64,000 bases of DNA from an uncultured Myxococcales bacterium (GTDB lineage Bacteria; Myxococcota_A; Polyangia; Fen-1088). The DNA is taken from assembly GCA_964589215.1 (NCBI GenBank), contig CAZPUH010000492.1, positions 10,221-74,220 of the forward strand, given 5' to 3'. Position numbers and translations under genes: made by a program. The notes under the pieces are model-generated. The model saw nothing but the letters and a program-made list of their open reading frames with translations, was not told the origin of the DNA and searched no databases. The first letter of the stretch is position 1, and each line of letters opens with the position of its first letter. Below are positions 9,223 to 42,866 of the stretch, piece after piece.

Positions 9223-10944
9223 TCACGGCCGCCCGCCGACCGCGGCCGCCCGCTCCAACTCGCTTTCGTAGGTCCCCAGCTGGTCGGCTGCGGCCTGCTT
9301 CGCCTCGGCCTCCGCCTTCGCCACCTCACCCTCGACGTCCTGCACGCCGTAGAACGGCGCCACCCGGCGTGCCGCCGTCGCCCGGGTGATGAACAGCGCC
9401 GCCTGGGCCTTCGCCGCGTTCTGGATCACCTGGCCCTTGTCGGCCTCGGTCGGCGGGAACCATGGGCCCCACAGGATGCTGACGTAGCCCCCCTCGCCCA
9501 GCGTGTACGGCTCCAGAGATTCATCGCCGGTGTCGGGGTCCTTCTTGCGCCGGAGCGGCAGATCGAACTGGACCACACCGATCCGTGGGTTGCCGTCCTC
9601 GTCCGGCGGCAGCTGACGTGGCGGCTGGCTCAGGAACTTTTGCGCCATGAAGACCACGATCTCCATCAGCGCCTCGATCGCCTCGCCGTACTGCTCGCGC
9701 AGGTCACCGGCCTTGGCCAGCATCGGCGCAAACCGGAGCTCGAGCGCCTCCGCGCTCTGCGCGGCCGCCATTGTTTCGTCGTTCGGAATCACCACCCCCG
9801 TAATCGTGTCCGTGTTCGCCTGCAGCTTGGTCGACAGCTCCAGCCCGGTGGTGACGCCGGCGCCTGACATCTCCATGTACTTGGCGCTCCCCTGCAGGCC
9901 GGTCTCGATGCCGTAGCGGGAACCTTTCTGCAAACCCTGTTGCTGCGCGACCTGGTTCACCGCGTGCGGATCGGTCGACGTCACGACGGTGGGGTCCATG
10001 TTTCCGAGCGTCGAATAAGCCGCCTGCGACAGGATGCGGTCGTCGGTGTCGATCGACTGGTAGGCGCCGTCGCAATCCGACTGCCCGTCCTCGGTCCCCT
10101 CCTCTTCGACAGCAGTGTTCAGGATCCATACGCCAGGGAAGCGGCCGAGATTGTGTTGAACCGCCAGCCCTTCTTCCGGAACCCACGACGCTGCTGGGTT
10201 CGCGATCGCGTCGTCGAACGCGACCTCCTTGTAAATGATGTCGCTCTTCTCGGTGATGATCCGCCGACACAGGTAATCGACCATCTCCGTCCCGATGATC
10301 TCGCCCTTGTCGTTGACCTTGTTCCGCTCGCGCACCGTCCGATACATGATCAGCAGGCCCGCCAACGAGCGATCCCGCGGGTCCTTCCAGACGGGCGTGC
10401 AGAACTTCGAGTTGTGCACCTCAAACGACCAGCGCCCCTCCCGCAGGTGAACGGTCATCGCCACCGATCCGATGCCGCCACCCAGGTTCCGTGCCGCACG
10501 CATCTTCGACCAGAACTTCGCCTTCTTGCGCACCGCCTCGAGGAAGGACGTCGTGTCCTCGTCGCCGTCGACCACGATCTGCGGCTTGCTCCGTTCGTTG
10601 AAGAGCAGGTTGGTGAACCGCTCGGTGGTCACCTTCGCCCGCCGCGTCGGCGCCGTCGGCCGCTTGTCCCTGACGTCGAGTTCTGGCCCGCCGCCGGTGG
10701 GAACCGTGCCACTCGGGTAGACGGCTTCGGCGGAGATCGTCTCCTTCGCCCGGGCCGGCATGTCGAACCAGTCGGTCTCTTGGTGGTCGTACTCCCGGCA
10801 GGTCAGAAACGCGTGCTTCCGATCGAGCGCTTTGAATCGCTCGGTCTCGTGGAAGACCGCCGTCCTCTGCAGGTGCTGGATGACCTGGTCGTCGGTGGGC
10901 TTGAAGGGTGCCGGCGCCGGCCGGCCATCAACGGTGGTGCTCAC
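9223..10944 (-). CDS. portal protein (putative)
   Basis: 573 aa, upstream of the Mu-F-like, scaffold and capsid genes. GTG start lies 7 nt after a TAGGCT hexamer. The N-terminus carries RPAPAPFK. Confidence 0.6.
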   Translation of the reverse strand: MSTTVDGRPAPAPFKPTDDQVIQHLQRTAVFHETERFKALDRKHAFLTCREYDHQETDWFDMPARAKETISAEAVYPSGTVPTGGGPELDVRDKRPTAPTRRAKVTTERFTNLLFNERSKPQIVVDGDEDTTSFLEAVRKKAKFWSKMRAARNLGGGIGSVAMTVHLREGRWSFEVHNSKFCTPVWKDPRDRSLAGLLIMYRTVRERNKVNDKGEIIGTEMVDYLCRRIITEKSDIIYKEVAFDDAIANPAASWVPEEGLAVQHNLGRFPGVWILNTAVEEEGTEDGQSDCDGAYQSIDTDDRILSQAAYSTLGNMDPTVVTSTDPHAVNQVAQQQGLQKGSRYGIETGLQGSAKYMEMSGAGVTTGLELSTKLQANTDTITGVVIPNDETMAAAQSAEALELRFAPMLAKAGDLREQYGEAIEALMEIVVFMAQKFLSQPPRQLPPDEDGNPRIGVVQFDLPLRRKKDPDTGDESLEPYTLGEGGYVSILWGPWFPPTEADKGQVIQNAAKAQAALFITRATAARRVAPFYGVQDVEGEVAKAEAEAKQAAADQLGTYESELERAAAVGGRP

Positions 10945-17700: not shown

Positions 17701-18453
17701 CTACCGGCGGGTGAAGTTCCGGCGCAGCGGCACCCCGCCCCCCTTAGGTGACCACTTCGCCAGCGCATCGCGACTAAACCACCACGCCATCACGCCGTCG
17801 CTCGTGGCGAAGACGGGGTAGTTCTTCACCTCCTCCTTGAACCGGCACCAGTGGCACGGGCAGGTCGACTCGTGCCCCTCCCATTCGCCGCCCGGAAAGA
17901 TCCAGGCGCCGTTGTTCATTTCGACCTCGAGCACCGGCAGGCCGACGTCCGGATCCGCCTTGTTCGAACCGGTCGTGAAGGACTCGACCTTCGGCCAGTA
18001 GGGCAGGTCGGCCTCCTTCACCCAATCGACCAGCGCCTCCTGGTATCCGTTGTTCTCGACCTGAATCCACTGCGGACCCAGCTCCTGATCGACGATGCCG
18101 ATCTGGCGTGCGGTCTCGGGCGAGCTCCAGGCGCCGAACCGGACATCCAGCAGCCCGCGCCGGTTGTTCGCCATCAGCCCCACGGTGACGATCGCCACGC
18201 CGGGCCGGCGCTTGCCGGACAGGTCGACCCCCGTGTAACAGAGCGGCTTGCGGGCCCGGAGCTCGCCGGCCGTCAGGCCGTGCTGGATGCATTTCTCGAA
18301 GCTGGGGAACTTCAGGTCGCCCGGCGCGACCGCCTGCATCAGGTAGCCCTTTTGGAAGGTCGCCATGTCGATCATGGCGTCCTGGAGCTTCTGCTTTCCG
18401 TGCTTCAACTCCCAGATCGGAAGAGACGGCAGCCGGATCGAGTGGTTCGGCAC
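17701..18453 (-). CDS. terL: terminase large subunit, nuclease (C-terminal) half
   Basis: RNase-H-like terminase nuclease pattern: YTGVDLSGKRRPGVAIVTV, IQVENNGYQEALVDWV, FTTGSNKADPDVGLPVLEVEM, TSDGVMAWWFSRDA. There is no ATPase domain in this ORF. Confidence 0.7.
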   Translation of the reverse strand: MPNHSIRLPSLPIWELKHGKQKLQDAMIDMATFQKGYLMQAVAPGDLKFPSFEKCIQHGLTAGELRARKPLCYTGVDLSGKRRPGVAIVTVGLMANNRRGLLDVRFGAWSSPETARQIGIVDQELGPQWIQVENNGYQEALVDWVKEADLPYWPKVESFTTGSNKADPDVGLPVLEVEMNNGAWIFPGGEWEGHESTCPCHWCRFKEEVKNYPVFATSDGVMAWWFSRDALAKWSPKGGGVPLRRNFTRR

Positions 18454-30029: not shown

Positions 30030-32036
30030 TCAGACCGGAGAACCGACCGGATAGTCTTCGAGCTCGGTCCCAAAGACCTCCTGGTCGTAAAAATCCAGGC
30101 TCGGCATCTGAATTCGCTGGATCAGGGTCAACCAACGGCGATCATTCTTGATGTCGTTCGAGTAGTCGTCGGATGACCATGCCGTGGCGAACGCCAGCGC
30201 ACGGGCCTCGGGGCCATCGAGCCGCGACATCCAGGTGCCGGTCGCCATCTTCTTGATCTTCGCCCGGACGGCTGCCTCTTCGCTGTTCTTCTGAGTGCAG
30301 ACGTCGTCCATGAACAGATAGTCCGCCTTTGACCCGATGCCCTCGGTCAGCACCCCGCGCGCCTGGATCGTCGGATCGGTGCCGTGCCCCTGGCGCTCGA
30401 CGAAGGCGTCTTGGGTGTCCCACTTTTGGCCGCGCCGGATGTGAGGGAACACCCGGCGGTATTCGTAGCTCTCGATCAGGCTCTTGATGGACGCCACGCG
30501 CAGCTTGGCCATGTCGTCGTTCGCGCAGACGACTTTGATGCGGACCTGTGGGTTCCGGCCCACGAGATAGGCGGCCAGCGGCACCAGAAAGCCGGTGTTG
30601 TGCACGATCACGTCGCTGGTCAGATACGTGTGATGCCCGTCGACTTCCATCCCAAAGGTCGGTTGGACCCCCATGTCACGGATGGTGACGATTTCGTCCC
30701 AGAAGATCTCAGGAGCCGTCAGCTTCAAGAGATAGGCGTTGCCCTCTGCTTCCGCCGCCAAGCGGACAACGCCGCGCGCCGTGCCCATCTGACGGTGGTT
30801 TTTCGTTTTGGCCTGATCGAGCGATACGCCCGTGTTGACCTTGTGCCAATGCGCCGTCCGCTTCAGGTATTTGCGGTACCCCAGCGGGATGATGTCGTTG
30901 TTCGTCAGGCGTCCGGTAGTTCGCGGCCCGAAGGTGGCCAGCTTCTGTCCCTTTTCTCCAGGCACGGGAACACGTTCGCGGAACAGGTCGAGCCACGGCC
31001 GACGTACTCGAAGTCGCCACGACGCGTGATGTCGCCCCAGGTACTTTCCGTTCTTCGGGAAAACGACGGAAACAATGCCCAGCCGCAACAGCAGCGACTG
31101 GACATCATCGAGGAGACCACGATTCACCGAATAGAGTTCGACGTTCCCCTTTGCGTCCACGTGCCCATCGCAGGCCACGTACGCGCCGATGTATCTGGCG
31201 ATCTGGTCAACGGGGGCAGAGAAGATTTTCGGGGGCGTTACCTTCGTCCAGGCGGTGCAGTGTTCGTGGGCTTGTTGCTCCATGAACCAGCTCCTGCATC
31301 CGCCGAGAACTCTCACGCCAGGCGTTCTCGGAGGATAGTTGAAGCGGGTGCTTCTGAAGCCTGCTCTCTCTGCCGCCGCTGCAATCGCATCGAGGAGATG
31401 GGGATCGCCATTCGCGACTTCGATTCCGGTTTGCTTTACCGATCCATCTCCGACGATGAATCCGAACAACTCCGGCTCGCCATCTCGTAGGCGATGCGTC
31501 CCCATATTCGGCAGGTTGTTGGCTACCGCGACGCTTCTTCCAATGGCGAGATCGGCTGCCTTCACCCAGCCGTTCACCGTCAGGAATGGATGCTCTTCCG
31601 TGACGTCTATCTCGCGCCCGCTGCGCAGCCCGATGCGGATGACCCGTCTATCTCCGTTGCCGAATACGCGCGCCCAGGCCGGCGCAAATCGGCCGGTCTC
31701 AGCGTCATAGGCGACGACGCTGACCATCAGCCCACATAGGTTGCCGATCGCGGCCGTCGTTCCGTCAGAAAGTTGGACCTTCGAGTGCGCGGGCTGGCAT
31801 TTACCGGAACTGAACGGCGCCATGATCATCGCGTGCTTTCCGCGGTTCCAGGCGTGGTTGACGTGCACGATCCAGGCGCGGTGCAGGTAGTGCAGTTCGA
31901 CGGGCCCACCGTCCTCGTCCTTGGCGCAAAACTCGATGAAGGCAGCGAGATTCACCCGCGCCTTCCGGATCTGTTCTTGGACCAGGCGCTTGGCGACGAT
32001 CAGGTCTTCGATGTTCGCGACGGCGGTAGTGGCCAT
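30030..32036 (-). CDS. terL: terminase large subunit, ATPase (N-terminal) half, interrupted by an intein
   Basis: From ATG 32036. Extein: Walker A MAPFSSGK|T (split by the intein), Walker B ADYLFMDDV, then ATAWSS. Extein total is 267 aa with no nuclease domain. Confidence 0.75.
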   Translation of the reverse strand: MATTAVANIEDLIVAKRLVQEQIRKARVNLAAFIEFCAKDEDGGPVELHYLHRAWIVHVNHAWNRGKHAMIMAPFSSGKCQPAHSKVQLSDGTTAAIGNLCGLMVSVVAYDAETGRFAPAWARVFGNGDRRVIRIGLRSGREIDVTEEHPFLTVNGWVKAADLAIGRSVAVANNLPNMGTHRLRDGEPELFGFIVGDGSVKQTGIEVANGDPHLLDAIAAAAERAGFRSTRFNYPPRTPGVRVLGGCRSWFMEQQAHEHCTAWTKVTPPKIFSAPVDQIARYIGAYVACDGHVDAKGNVELYSVNRGLLDDVQSLLLRLGIVSVVFPKNGKYLGRHHASWRLRVRRPWLDLFRERVPVPGEKGQKLATFGPRTTGRLTNNDIIPLGYRKYLKRTAHWHKVNTGVSLDQAKTKNHRQMGTARGVVRLAAEAEGNAYLLKLTAPEIFWDEIVTIRDMGVQPTFGMEVDGHHTYLTSDVIVHNTGFLVPLAAYLVGRNPQVRIKVVCANDDMAKLRVASIKSLIESYEYRRVFPHIRRGQKWDTQDAFVERQGHGTDPTIQARGVLTEGIGSKADYLFMDDVCTQKNSEEAAVRAKIKKMATGTWMSRLDGPEARALAFATAWSSDDYSNDIKNDRRWLTLIQRIQMPSLDFYDQEVFGTELEDYPVGSPV
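30597..31799 (-). mobile_element. intein with LAGLIDADG homing endonuclease in the TerL P-loop
   Basis: 401 aa. Starts at Cys (codon 31799..31797) right after GK and ends HN, followed by Thr (30596..30594). Block B is VTEEHPF. LAGLIDADG motifs are LFGFIVGDGSV and IGAYVACDGHV. C-terminal end is SDVIVHN. Confidence 0.8.
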
Positions 32037-32058
32037 CTCGGCCCATGGTAGACGATCC

Positions 32059-32069
32059 CGCGTAGTATC
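32059..32069 (+). promoter_or_regulatory. class I promoter-like motif CGCGTAGTATC (only + strand copy)
   Basis: Exact 11-mer on the top strand. TAGTAT ends 7 nt before ATG 32076. Confidence 0.6.
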
Positions 32070-32075
32070 GAGCAC

Positions 32076-32441
32076 ATGACGTATGTGACCCTGACGCCGA
32101 AGACCAACCGGATCACGGTCCGCACGACGCTCCGCCCCAGCGCCGCCTACGCCCACCGCGACTTCGCCGTCAGCATCCAACCGGTGCACGCCGGCCTGAC
32201 GTTCACCGTGTGGGGTCGGACCGAGCCTGGACGGGCGAAGTTCAGGCCATGCACCGAGCTCGGCGACGACTTCCTCAGCCGGGTCGAGGAGGTCGTGGTT
32301 GGCGCGGGACTGGATGAACTATCCAAGCTGGCGCTCGGTCGGACCCAGGACGACGCCACCGTGAAGCGGATCATTGACGTGGTCCGCGATCTGCTCGAGT
32401 GCACGGCGGCGCCCGAGCAGAAGCTGGCGGACGCCGCCTAG
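32076..32441 (+). CDS. hypothetical protein (plus strand)
   Basis: 121 aa with very high GC3. Divergent from TerL across a 39-bp gap. Confidence 0.65.
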   Translation: MTYVTLTPKTNRITVRTTLRPSAAYAHRDFAVSIQPVHAGLTFTVWGRTEPGRAKFRPCTELGDDFLSRVEEVVVGAGLDELSKLALGRTQDDATVKRIIDVVRDLLECTAAPEQKLADAA

Positions 32442-39621: not shown

Positions 39622-41208
39622 TCAGCGTTCGACGACGACCTTTACGTCCGGCTGGGCGCTGTAGGCGTTGTCCTCGACGAAGAACAGCCCCAGCGTGGCC
39701 ATCTCCTTCATCGCCTCCCACACACGCGGGTTCGCGGTCTTGTGACCCAGACGGGTGAGCTCCTTGAACACGTCGCCTGCCTTCCGTGGCTCTTTGAACC
39801 AGCCGCGCATGTACAGCGCCGCGATCTTGGCCTTCAGCGACCCGTCCTCGAAGCTGACCTCGCGACGTTCCTCGCGCACGTGTAGCTCTGGCTTGGTCGT
39901 GACGAGTTTGATCAATGTCGGCGCCTCCTTCATCAAGCGGGCGCGAACTTCGCGGTAGATTGCGTCCATATCGACGTTGCCCGCTGGCGCGTCAACGCGC
40001 GCGGTGGGCGGCGTGCTGACCGTTCCCTGGCGTTCGAGAATCTGCTCCATCCCGTCTAGCAGCCGGTCGAGCTTGTCTTCCTGTTCCTGCGTCATGTCGT
40101 CGTCCTTTGGTTCTGACCGCCGGAGCTCCGGCAGCTGTTCGGTTTGTTCCGTGGCGAGCATCGGGCGCGGGTCGAGATCTTCGAATCGTCCGGCGGCGGG
40201 CAGGCTCCGGCCGTAGTCGCCGCGGCTCGCGCCGTCGGCATCGCCACGCCCCAGCGCGATCTCTCGCGCCACATGCGCGTCCAACCAAGACGGCCGCACG
40301 TAGACCAGCCGCGCGCCGGCGGACGTGCATGCGAAGAACTGGCCCCGGCGAAGGCCGGCAACATCGTCCGGTTTCGGTTTCCGCACGCCGCCCGGGATCT
40401 GTTCGATCGCCCGCTTGACCTCGTTGCGCTCGCGCTGCGCGCCCAGCAGCCATACGGTCGCCGAGCGGAGCAAGGTCTTATCCACGCCGGCGATGTCCTG
40501 CGAATCAAACCAGACGAAGTTGCGCAGGTTGGCGCCCTTGCGCACCAGCGCCTCGGCGGCCGCCCGGACCGGCGTGCTCCTGCCCTGTGGCACAAATTCC
40601 CACGCCTCCGGGATCACCGTGATCACCCCGCTCTCCTTCTCGTAAATCTGCTCCAGCACGGTCCGGATGATCAGCGACTGAACCTCGGTCGAATACTTCT
40701 CCAGATCCATCACCCGCAGCCCCACCGCGCCCTTGAAATCGAACTGCTGTCGCGTCGGCAGTTTCGACAGCTGCGGAAGCACCCGATCCAGATACTCGCC
40801 CAGCAGCATGAAAATGTCGGCGTCCATCGAGCGCCGGGATCGGTCCTGCAGCTCCCGCGCGTTGCGCCGCACGTCAGCCAACGTCTTGGCGTTCTTCGCC
40901 GCCTTGATCAGCCAGGCGCGTTCGAACTTCATGCGCTGCCGCTGGGATGCCTCGAGCAGCGCCTCGACGAACGGCCAGTCAGCCTGGTCCTTGAAGTACG
41001 GCAGCACGCGGCGCGCGCTGGCGAACGACGCCTCACCGCGCTTGGTGACGAAGGCGATCGCCGGGGCCCCGGAGCGCTCGACCAGCGCCTCCAGCGTGGT
41101 GGTCTTTCCGGCCAGCTGGCTCTGTCCGGTGACGACCATGTGTCCGAGCGGGATCGAAACCTCCTCGCCGGTTCCAACCTCGAAGCCCAGGTGGACGCTC
41201 TTCTTCAT
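39622..41208 (-). CDS. HerA/FtsK-like P-loop ATPase with C-terminal winged-helix-like region
   Basis: Walker A GQSQLAGKTTT, Walker-B-like ITVIPEAWEF. 528 aa. Confidence 0.55.
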   Translation of the reverse strand: MKKSVHLGFEVGTGEEVSIPLGHMVVTGQSQLAGKTTTLEALVERSGAPAIAFVTKRGEASFASARRVLPYFKDQADWPFVEALLEASQRQRMKFERAWLIKAAKNAKTLADVRRNARELQDRSRRSMDADIFMLLGEYLDRVLPQLSKLPTRQQFDFKGAVGLRVMDLEKYSTEVQSLIIRTVLEQIYEKESGVITVIPEAWEFVPQGRSTPVRAAAEALVRKGANLRNFVWFDSQDIAGVDKTLLRSATVWLLGAQRERNEVKRAIEQIPGGVRKPKPDDVAGLRRGQFFACTSAGARLVYVRPSWLDAHVAREIALGRGDADGASRGDYGRSLPAAGRFEDLDPRPMLATEQTEQLPELRRSEPKDDDMTQEQEDKLDRLLDGMEQILERQGTVSTPPTARVDAPAGNVDMDAIYREVRARLMKEAPTLIKLVTTKPELHVREERREVSFEDGSLKAKIAALYMRGWFKEPRKAGDVFKELTRLGHKTANPRVWEAMKEMATLGLFFVEDNAYSAQPDVKVVVER

Positions 41209-41444: not shown

Positions 41445-42866
41445 TCACCAGCGCAGGTCTTCCTGGGGATCTGGCTCGTGATCCTCGCGCTCCTCGAAGA
41501 CCGTGTATTCGGGCAGCCAGTCGACCTGGATCGTTCCAGGGTGACCGCCGCGGTACTTGCCGAAGATCAGCTTGGCGGGGTGCCGCCCCACCGCAGGCGG
41601 CGCGCTGTCCCACCAAGGAAAGACCACGACGTCCGCGTCCTGCTCGACGGCGCCTGACTCGCGCAGGTCGGTCAGGTTTGGCGCCCGCATCTTGCCGTCC
41701 TTGCCCACCATGTTCCGATTGAGCTGGCTGCAGAGCACCACTGGGCAGCCGAGTTGTTTGGCCAGCTTCTTCATCGCGCGCGTGATCTTGGCGACCTCGC
41801 GCTCGCGCGTGCGCTCGTCCTTGTCGGCCTCCACCAACCCCAGGTAGTCGACGATCACCAGCGCGCGCCCCTCCGGTGCGTGCCGCGCGCGCCAGCGCCG
41901 CGCCTCAGCGCAGATCTGCTGGGTGCGCAGGACGCGTTCGTCGACCCACAACGGGATTTCGTACAGCTTGCCCATCGCGCCCGTGAGGCGCACCCATTCG
42001 GGTCCGGTGAGCCGCCCGAGTCCGATCGCGTGACCGTTCACCTTGGCCGCGTTGGCCATGGCGCGCTCGATCAGTTCGTCTCGGCTCATCTCCAGCGAAA
42101 ACACCAGCGTGGGCACGCCCGCTCGAGCAGCCGCCACCGCCACCGTGTTGACCGCCCAGGCGGTCTTCCCGCCGCCCGGACGCGCGGCGACGATGATCAG
42201 GTGCTTGGCCCGAAGGCCGCCCACTTTGCGATCCACCGACGCGATCCCGGTCGGCACCAGGAAGTCCTCCGGCGCGCTGGCCCGTCGTTCGATCCGCTCG
42301 GTGACGTCGACCAGCACCTCGCCGATTCGCCGCGGGCCATCGTCGCCGCGCAGCTCGAGTCCCGCCACCGATCCCCGTAGGTCGTTCAGGAACGCCTCGA
42401 CGTCGGTTGGCCCCCCGTAGGCCACCGACACCGCCTCCAGGCATGTCGCGATCGCCCGCCGCAACGTTGCCTTGGCCGCGATCACCCTGGCGTAGTGCCG
42501 AACGTTCTCCGCCGTCGGCGTGTCATTCGCCAGCGAGACCAAGAACGCCTCGCCCCCGTCCAGCCGCTGCAGCCGCCCGCGAGCGCGGAGTTCGTCGGCA
42601 ACCGCCAAAATCTCCACCGGCCGACCCGCTGCGGCGACGTCCCGCATCACCTCGAAGATCTCCCGGTGCACGGGGAAGAAGAAATCGTCCACCCCGAGAT
42701 CGGTCAGGTCGTCGAGCGACGCAGGCCGGATGAACACCGACCCCAGCGCCCCCCGCTCCGCCCGTTCGCTGTGCGGCGGCACCTTCCCAACCAGGTCGAG
42801 CGTGGCATTTTTCCCCACGCCGTCAGACCGCCTGGCTTCGCTTCTGCTGCGCGCGTTCTCGTCCAA
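41445..42866 (-). CDS. dnaB: replicative DNA helicase DnaB
   Basis: PPHSERAERGALGSVF N-terminal motif, Walker A ARPGGGKT, FSLEMS, IVDYLGL. The start (TTG 42866) is uncertain. Confidence 0.85.
   Translation of the reverse strand: MDENARSRSEARRSDGVGKNATLDLVGKVPPHSERAERGALGSVFIRPASLDDLTDLGVDDFFFPVHREIFEVMRDVAAAGRPVEILAVADELRARGRLQRLDGGEAFLVSLANDTPTAENVRHYARVIAAKATLRRAIATCLEAVSVAYGGPTDVEAFLNDLRGSVAGLELRGDDGPRRIGEVLVDVTERIERRASAPEDFLVPTGIASVDRKVGGLRAKHLIIVAARPGGGKTAWAVNTVAVAAARAGVPTLVFSLEMSRDELIERAMANAAKVNGHAIGLGRLTGPEWVRLTGAMGKLYEIPLWVDERVLRTQQICAEARRWRARHAPEGRALVIVDYLGLVEADKDERTREREVAKITRAMKKLAKQLGCPVVLCSQLNRNMVGKDGKMRAPNLTDLRESGAVEQDADVVVFPWWDSAPPAVGRHPAKLIFGKYRGGHPGTIQVDWLPEYTVFEEREDHEPDPQEDLRW

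Follow-up and report, generated by a model that had tools for sequence, protein, structure and literature searches.

A predicted class 1 homing intein in the Walker A motif of a split T7-type large terminase from an uncultured soil phage

Introduction

Inteins show a general preference for P-loops (Novikova et al. 2016, PMC4760082), and in mycobacteriophages their commonest host is the large terminase subunit, TerL (Kelley et al. 2016, mBio, PMC5050341). Among the TerL sites described in the latter work, TerL1-a lies between the invariant lysine and the nucleophilic threonine; all the TerL inteins tested there (sites b, c, e, f and g) spliced in a reporter, and the two that were assayed for cleavage (b and c) cut intein-less alleles. 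A preprint from 2025 (10.1101/2025.01.02.630785) reported 293 TerL inteins in actinophages, together with extein switching at nucleotide-binding sites. In this work we consider an insert at a site of the TerL1-a kind in terL-N, a terminase gene on a stretch of 64,000 nucleotides (positions 10,221 to 74,220 of contig CAZPUH010000492.1, assembly GCA_964589215.1), the whole of which we call the window. Its source is an uncultured soil phage of high G+C content (67% over the window) and no known actinophage. An earlier reading of the letters alone (the original prediction) had likened the insert to the P-loop inteins known from actinobacteriophage terminases, a parallel that the TerL1-a site bears out.

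The insert sits between Lys79 and the threonine of the Walker A motif APFSSGK/T. That it is a class 1 homing intein, placed between the Walker A Lys and Thr of the terL-N gene of a split T7-type terminase, we consider highly probable, and the evidence for each part of this reading is given below, together with the other explanations that bear on it.

Results and Discussion

Anatomy of the intein

Translation confirms to the base the limits that the original prediction had set for the insert, 401 amino acids (aa) at 30597..31799 directly after the P-loop Lys, and all the landmarks listed there (a Cys start, VTEEHPF, LFGFIVGDGSV, IGAYVACDGHV, and HN followed by Thr) are present in the positions expected of them. 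The features of the gene are given here with the evidence for each (GC3 is the G+C content of third codon positions).

30033..32036, minus strand: coding sequence of the terL-N precursor (list of open reading frames, ORFs; 668-aa database copy; homologue N-termini equal in length)
31800..32036, minus strand: N-extein, 79 aa, closing with the first seven Walker A residues, APFSSGK (translation; alignment to intein-less homologues)
30597..31799, minus strand: predicted class 1 intein, 401 aa or 1203 nt, from Cys1 to His400-Asn401 (PF14890, PF14528, TIGR01445, DnaB-intein model, AlphaFold2, Foldseek, GC3)
31584..31604, minus strand: block B, VTEEHPF, with Thr67 and His70 (translation; 41-intein alignment)
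31437..31469, minus strand: first LAGLIDADG motif, LFGFIVGDGSV, with catalytic Asp118 (translation; conservation)
31158..31190, minus strand: second LAGLIDADG motif, IGAYVACDGHV, with catalytic Asp211 (translation; conservation)
30597..30662, minus strand: blocks F and G, PTFGMEVDGHHTYLTSDVIVHN, with Gly383 at F:4, Glu385 at F:6 and the end His400-Asn401 (translation)
30033..30596, minus strand: C-extein, 188 aa, opening with Thr+1, the Walker A Thr (translation; alignment)
30300..30320, minus strand: Walker B, YLFMDDV, in the C-extein (translation)

The stop codon of terL-N lies at 30030..30032 and the enclosing ORF runs over 30030..32189 on the minus strand. Within it the ATG at 32036 is the likely start, because the public copy of the protein has 668 aa and the N-termini of homologues match in length. 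The precursor thus consists of the 79-aa N-extein, the 401-aa intein and the 188-aa C-extein, with a TerL ATPase domain of 267 aa as the predicted spliced product. In the protein the order is ...HAMIMAPFSSGK / CQPAHSKV...SDVIVHN / TGFLVPL..., which over a longer stretch of the junctions reads ...GKHAMIMAPFSSGK / CQPAHSKVQLSDG ... YLTSDVIVHN / TGFLVPLAAYLVG..., and once the insert is removed the flanks join as ...TTCAGTTCCGGTAAA/ACCGGCTTTCTGGTG....

Judged by its sequence and modelled fold, the insert is an intein of class 1 in which a LAGLIDADG homing endonuclease with two motifs is nested, because profile matches, a confident model that falls on solved inteins and 20 colinear intein-less homologues all point the same way. 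The original prediction had named an intein with such an endonuclease on its motifs, and the comparison with intein profiles that it proposed gives scores above the cut-offs: the Pfam family Intein_splicing (PF14890) matches at E=2.5e-12 with 47.3 bits against a cut-off of 35.8, LAGLIDADG_3 (PF14528) matches in two stretches at E=7.6e-18, exceeding its gathering score, and the NCBIfam model intein_Nterm (TIGR01445) reaches 28.1 bits against 24.5. The top NCBIfam match, at E=5.9e-41, is to a DnaB model that includes an intein, and covers the intein part of it (positions 398-826 of 886). These matches far exceed chance. Among sequences with solved structures the nearest are DnaB mini-inteins (1MI8, E=1.6e-12), to which blocks B, F and G align. 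An AlphaFold2 model built from the 41-sequence alignment has a mean predicted local distance difference test score (pLDDT) of 93.3 and a predicted template modelling score (pTM) of 0.92; in Foldseek it finds TliVMA (7QSS, TM-score 0.77) and also PI-PfuI (1DQ3), PI-TkoII (2CW7) and PI-SceI (1VDE), with its splicing half lying on DnaB and RecA mini-inteins at about 1-1.5 Å root-mean-square deviation and its middle on I-DmoI. The modelled endonuclease domain also matches those of PI-SceI and PI-PfuI. As for the homologues, the 20 intein-less proteins found in a large protein database (179-306 aa, 18 of them 262-306 aa; 44-74% identical) are all colinear with the host across the junction, reading ...SGK/T[ST]... 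without a gap.

The residues on which splicing would depend are conserved in the alignment of 41 inteins: His70, His400 and Asn401 are invariant, Cys1 (codon 31797..31799) is Cys in 40 of the 41 and Thr67 is kept in 37. The position of Asp118 holds Asp or Glu in 40 of the 41 and is retained in all nine TerL-clade inteins, whilst that of Asp211 is Asp in 38. Of the features that mark class 1, the insert shows an in-frame position with colinear intein-less homologues, the N-terminal Cys, TxxH, HN followed by Thr+1, and a HINT profile and fold. It lacks the Asp at F:4, a feature typical of the class and not obligatory, and carries Gly383 instead, so that the claim of the original prediction that all canonical splicing residues are present stands for Cys1, TxxH, HN and Thr+1 and fails at this position. 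Of 89 related inteins 81 have Asp at this position, whereas all five inteins of the TerL clade, that of the window included, have Gly, with Glu or Asp two residues further on (TFGMEV versus YDLTV). This substitution lowers the certainty of efficient coupled splicing and not that of class 1 membership. We also considered a class 3 intein, and ruled it out by the presence of Cys1, Gly at F:4, Val at G:5 and the lack of a WCT triplet.

The host protein and its predicted splicing

The joined exteins belong to a terminase. The spliced 267-aa sequence matches the T7-type TerL model NF033889 at E=4e-16 over profile positions 31-160 of 500, with a score below the cut-off that this model sets for full-length proteins, which is to be expected of a half protein. 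The profile built from 18 intein-less members of the family matches residues 53-222 of T7 gp19 (PDB 4BIJ) at E=1.6e-11, and in that alignment AFRGIGKS of gp19 falls on APFNSGKT, which upholds the earlier identification of the interrupted motif as the TerL Walker A. Pfam gives the extein just a weak Terminase_6N match at Walker A, and not Terminase_1; among annotated phages it finds only podovirus terminases of about 25% identity; and a scan of IMG/VR with the spliced extein, by exact peptide patterns, gave no relatives. The host is therewith supported as a putative ATPase domain of a T7-type large terminase. Compared with the TerL1-a type, the window shows a TerL ATPase host and the Lys/Thr insertion point and does not show a Terminase_1 host; its intein is not a TerL1-a allele, because the type of site is the same and the TerL family is different.

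The identical intein-bearing terL-N allele was assembled in four soil metagenome runs, at a word depth of up to about 50x and on contigs of up to 87.9 kb, which is compatible with a viable phage whose terminase would be restored by splicing. We infer splicing because its residues are conserved and because a phage found in abundance requires its TerL P-loop to be intact, and consider it very probable that the intein is splicing-competent; the original prediction had called it probably active, which is reasonable as a reading of the sequence.

The opposite explanation is that the insert does not splice, that terL-N is disrupted and that packaging is driven by another ATPase, for instance the 528-aa P-loop protein encoded at 39622..41208. 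This second ATPase lies 7.5 kb upstream and has a very weak match to a TerL family of the PHROG database (E=9e-4), and the missing Asp at F:4 could be read in the same sense. The protein has, however, neither a Pfam match nor TerL architecture. In addition, the frame is open over 2 kb, the essential splice residues are conserved over a diverged intein clade, the exteins retain Walker A and B, a GC3 typical of a real gene (0.84) and 74% identity to intein-less homologues, and the phage is abundant in four samples. A disrupted terL-N is, on balance, extremely improbable.

A large terminase split into two genes

TerL-N ends after the ATPase domain, and the nuclease domain of TerL is found in another gene of the window.

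17701..18453, minus strand: terL-C, a separate TerL nuclease-domain gene, 11.6 kb downstream of terL-N (PHROG 38; alignment to fused family members)

TerL-C matches positions 486-697 of 760 of PHROG 38 at E=2e-7, and along its whole length can be aligned to residues ~270-515 of fused proteins of this family, with E values down to 7.5e-55; searches against Pfam and PDB sequences gave no matches. The N-halves of the fused TerLs, which have about 520 aa, belong to the same family as terL-N. An exhaustive profile search at E<=1e-30 yielded 445 representatives of this family, of which the best 150 (representatives at 50% identity) were classified, and 85 of these are ATPase-only, as are all 23 close relatives of terL-N. 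TerL in this phage is thus, by all signs in the sequence, truly split into two genes. In the loci of four relatives (L001-L004) terL-C was not found within flanks of at most 10 kb, which is less than the 11.6-kb spacing seen in the window.

The split would predate the intein in this lineage, because the window gene is nested among intein-less ATPase-only genes. The original prediction of an intein in an already split TerL thus gains support both from this nesting and from the match of terL-C to the C-halves of fused relatives.

The protein at 39622..41208 on the minus strand was also considered as the missing half of TerL and rejected as a separate, unrelated P-loop ATPase without a Pfam match. 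It has a Walker A motif of its own (GQSQLAGKTT), in addition to the marginal PHROG match already mentioned, and its gene adjoins one for a DnaB-like helicase (41445..42866).

Relatives with and without the intein

The search for intein-less homologues that the original prediction proposed yields, besides the 20 colinear proteins, an empty site that can be read in the DNA of two relatives (L001 and L003), as in ...TCCAGTGGAAAA/ACGTCCACC... of L001. In four homologues, 668-684 aa long, the identical point is occupied by an intein (GK/C...VHN/[ST]). Intein boundaries in relatives were set by alignment. The best 150 family representatives divide as follows.

66 representatives: ATPase-only, no insert
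63 representatives: normal fused TerL, no insert
13 representatives: P-loop insert
8 representatives: insert elsewhere

Eleven of the 13 P-loop inserts lie at GK/C or GK/S, and the other two lie three residues upstream, ahead of SGKT. All these eleven fall in the 85 ATPase-only representatives, and two of them, 134 and 161 aa long, are mini-inteins from which the endonuclease has been lost. Same-site inteins 42-53% identical to that of the window occur in about ten representatives (the four close ones and about six further), and a second same-site group is just 22-28% identical to it. Taken together, empty site, full intein and mini-intein cover all stages of a classical homing cycle.

Within the best 150, each of the 13 P-loop inserts falls in an ATPase-only protein and the 65 fused TerLs have none, a raw count, uncorrected for phylogeny, that may simply mirror relatedness to the query profile. 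Intein-sized inserts also occur at further sites of this TerL family (P0159, P0163, P0161, P0121, P0204, P0135 and P0165): at APM[GS]/C...HN/SGKT (three residues upstream of Lys), after KIVCN, just before Walker B (GIGGR/C) and near profile position 221-224.

Outside TerL, the best matches to the window intein are likewise inserted right after a Walker A Lys, in RuvB of Paractinoplanes (E=9e-38) and at DnaB site b (E=1e-36 to 1e-29); lower scores were obtained for inteins at DnaB H4 sites and for those of DnaE and dCTP deaminase. In the intein tree that of RuvB is sister to the TerL clade (support 100/96); two further pairs of P-loop inteins attach to them, weakly (74/67). To the same broad group belong the inteins of two Zot-like P-loop NTPases, P0046 and P0118 (a Woesearchaeota archaeon record), inserted at GKRGGGK/C...HN/SY, which is another use of the Lys/Ser-Thr P-loop site in unrelated ATPases.

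Probable horizontal acquisition and the state of the endonuclease

The trees of the intein and of its host gene disagree. In the extein tree the window gene falls within a clade of 15 members (100/100) in which it is the sole intein carrier. In the intein tree the TerL inteins tested, five in number, group as a single clade (100/99), where the window intein and that of P0028 form a pair (99/90); the host gene of the latter sits on a different deep branch. Grouping all intein-bearing exteins in one clade is rejected by the approximately unbiased (AU) test (log-likelihood difference, ΔlnL, 139; p=4e-59), and so is a pairing of the window and P0028 genes as extein sisters (ΔlnL 110, p=5e-5). GC3 also differs, being 0.72 in the intein and 0.84 in both exteins. 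The conflict of the trees and the lower GC3 of the intein fit acquisition by homing, and most likely the window lineage gained its intein horizontally, after the TerL split.

A footprint of this gain could remain in the first ~22 residues of the C-extein (30531..30596, minus strand), where three of four diagnostic sites are of the type found in a distant clade, compared with 1 of 48 elsewhere (Fisher p=7e-4). The residues of the tract +1..+22 shared with that distant intein-bearing clade are V91, R93 and V101, and compared with close relatives the tract is one codon shorter at +2..+5 (TGFL-VPL versus TSTMAVPL). The tract is suggestive of co-conversion, or alternatively may reflect adaptation to the intein.

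Whether the endonuclease is still at work is a separate matter. At 42%, conservation of the endonuclease core comes close to that of the splicing lobes (50-56%), and each of the nine full-length clade members keeps both LAGLIDADG motifs intact; this near-equal conservation, with the motifs intact, argues for continued constraint on the endonuclease. In the window the region has no frameshift or deletion, and both motifs and both catalytic Asp residues are intact. Activity of the homing endonuclease is, accordingly graded, probable, with appreciably less assurance than splicing.

Several points tell against the picture of an active homing intein. Gly replaces the usual Asp at F:4, so that the steps of splicing may be coupled less well than in a textbook intein of class 1, and the +1 nucleophile is Thr, which is less usual than Cys or Ser. 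Both splicing and DNA cleavage by this intein are deduced from sequence. The co-conversion tract was delimited after viewing the alignment. The flanks at the window's junction do not match the empty sites found in its closest relatives, and cleavage of those alleles is only a possibility. The nearest sampled intein is 53% identical and no recent donor is known, so the transfer could be old. No intein-free allele of the same phage was found in the assembled contigs of the four soil runs, a search that cannot show its absence because assemblies lose rare variants.

Some of these points could equally be read as signs that splicing is intact whilst the endonuclease is dead, the intein being a fixed and vertically inherited passenger, late in its homing cycle and immobile. 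A closest relative of only 53% identity gives no sign of recent transfer, the junction flanks are unlike the empty sites of the nearest relatives, and the mini-inteins of the same lineage indicate that decay of the endonuclease does occur. On the other side stand the whole LAGLIDADG motifs and catalytic Asp residues in an undamaged frame, a core whose conservation approaches that of the lobes and whose fold is modelled with high confidence, and an intein that differs from its host gene in composition and phylogeny. An immobile passenger is therefore a possibility to be kept in mind, albeit a rather unlikely one.

Proposed splicing and mobility

Going by known intein chemistry, the 668-aa precursor would be translated with a broken P-loop, and would bind no ATP. 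The splicing lobes (about residues 1-104 and 362-401) would then co-fold, and Cys1, aided by Thr67 and His70, would attack the Lys79-Cys1 bond. The N-extein would be transferred to the hydroxyl of Thr+1, and cyclisation of Asn401, with the help of His400, would release the intein. An O-to-N shift would finally give a peptide bond, and with it a 267-aa ATPase with APFSSGKT, which would partner the separately encoded nuclease subunit. The freed intein, of about 45 kDa, might in turn cut intein-less terL-N alleles of co-infecting relatives, and repair templated by the intein-bearing copy would spread the element.

In principle, an intein in such a position could also serve the phage as a post-translational switch, with splicing dependent on conditions (redox state, temperature, binding of DNA or a partner) and timing the packaging ATPase late in infection. 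P-loop inteins sensitive to conditions are reported for RadA and mycobacterial DnaB (PMC4513877, PMC6195587); the intein would block the ATP site and probably the assembly of oligomers, as argued by Kelley et al. 2016 (PMC5050341); and the atypical Gly at F:4 could alter the coupling of the splicing steps. Against this, no conserved regulatory feature is seen. Those Cys residues of the window intein that were compared (e.g., Cys22, which is not shared) are by eye unconserved in the clade, save Cys1 and Cys210, and the latter lies inside the second LAGLIDADG motif (ACDG, SCDG or ECDG in the clade); a redox trap in particular was rejected on this ground. Most close relatives are free of the intein, which makes it dispensable for the phage life cycle, and its patchy distribution fits a selfish element. 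A switch thus appears improbable, and the reading of the insert as a homing intein is the one we retain.

Gene setting

The minus strand of the window carries nearly all genes. Nearby, the only gene on the plus strand is the one at 32076..32441, which has a clear coding signal (GC3 0.89) and starts beyond a gap of 39 nt from the terL-N start (32036, minus strand). A recurrent 11-nt motif of the phage stands in this gap, at 32059, oriented toward the plus-strand gene, and there is no copy of it ahead of terL-N. A 368-aa ORF antisense to the intein (30384..31490, plus strand) was rejected as a shadow ORF (G+C at codon positions 1, 2 and 3 of 0.75, 0.43 and 0.64); the endonuclease is encoded in frame instead.

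Significance

Public records name the terL-N product ‘hypothetical protein’ or ‘intein/homing endonuclease’, and unless the intein is removed, the terminase in this group of phages can readily escape notice during annotation. The finding leaves knowledge of intein function unchanged, and extends the reach of the Lys/Thr P-loop hot spot to the T7-type TerL family of uncultured high-GC soil phages. The keeping of a putatively splicing-competent intein in an ATPase-only gene suggests that the phage needs the stand-alone ATPase and that this protein is functional, and so indirectly supports the two-gene terminase as a working arrangement. In addition, a compact class 1 intein with Thr+1 and an unusual block F may be useful to protein engineers.

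Comparison with known systems

Of the described systems, the mycobacteriophage TerL1-a inteins resemble the window in their TerL ATPase host, the Lys/Thr insertion point, the combination of a splicing domain with a LAGLIDADG endonuclease, and their patchy distribution. They differ in that the window host is T7-type, the ATPase-only gene of a split TerL, and comes from an uncultured soil phage.

In sequence, the best-scoring non-TerL relatives after RuvB are the DnaB site-b inteins of bacteria (Novikova et al. 2016, PMC4760082), at 27-30% identity. They too follow the Walker A Lys (ARPAMGK/C...HN/S), have about 400-420 aa, and contain a LAGLIDADG core with a helical region following it; unlike the window intein, they sit in another host protein, have Asp at F:4 and form a clade of their own apart from the TerL and RuvB group. 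The RuvB P-loop intein of Paractinoplanes atraurantiacus (P0029) shares the Walker A position (GPPGLGK/...HN/TT), whereas its host is cellular, its length is 336 aa, and Pro instead of Cys at position 1, together with Cys at F:4, makes it class-3-like. Its block B has Ala in the place of Thr, and of the WCT triplet the Trp and the Thr are absent. It is tempting to see in the TerL-N Lys/Thr inteins a naturally occurring lineage of class 1 that splices although its block F has no Asp, with Gly at F:4 and an acidic residue at F:6, and which together with its RuvB sister would record both an extein switch between the P-loops of cellular and phage ATPases and a step between class 1 and class 3 chemistry; we offer this as a speculation with rather long odds against it.

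Structurally, TliVMA, PI-PfuI, PI-TkoII and PI-SceI share with the window intein a HINT domain with an inserted double LAGLIDADG domain (Foldseek E=8e-23 to 4e-13), and differ in having 12-18% identity, archaeal or yeast hosts and other insertion sites. The Ssp DnaB mini-intein 1MI8 has the closest solved splicing lobes, superposed at about 1 Å, but it is engineered, has no endonuclease and carries Asp at F:4 (VFDLTV), in contrast to Gly in the window (TFGMEV).

In conclusion, elements of this kind, and insertion sites of this kind, are already well known. What is particular here is the combination of a T7-type host TerL, a stand-alone ATPase gene, an uncultured high-GC soil phage and an intein lineage without Asp at F:4.

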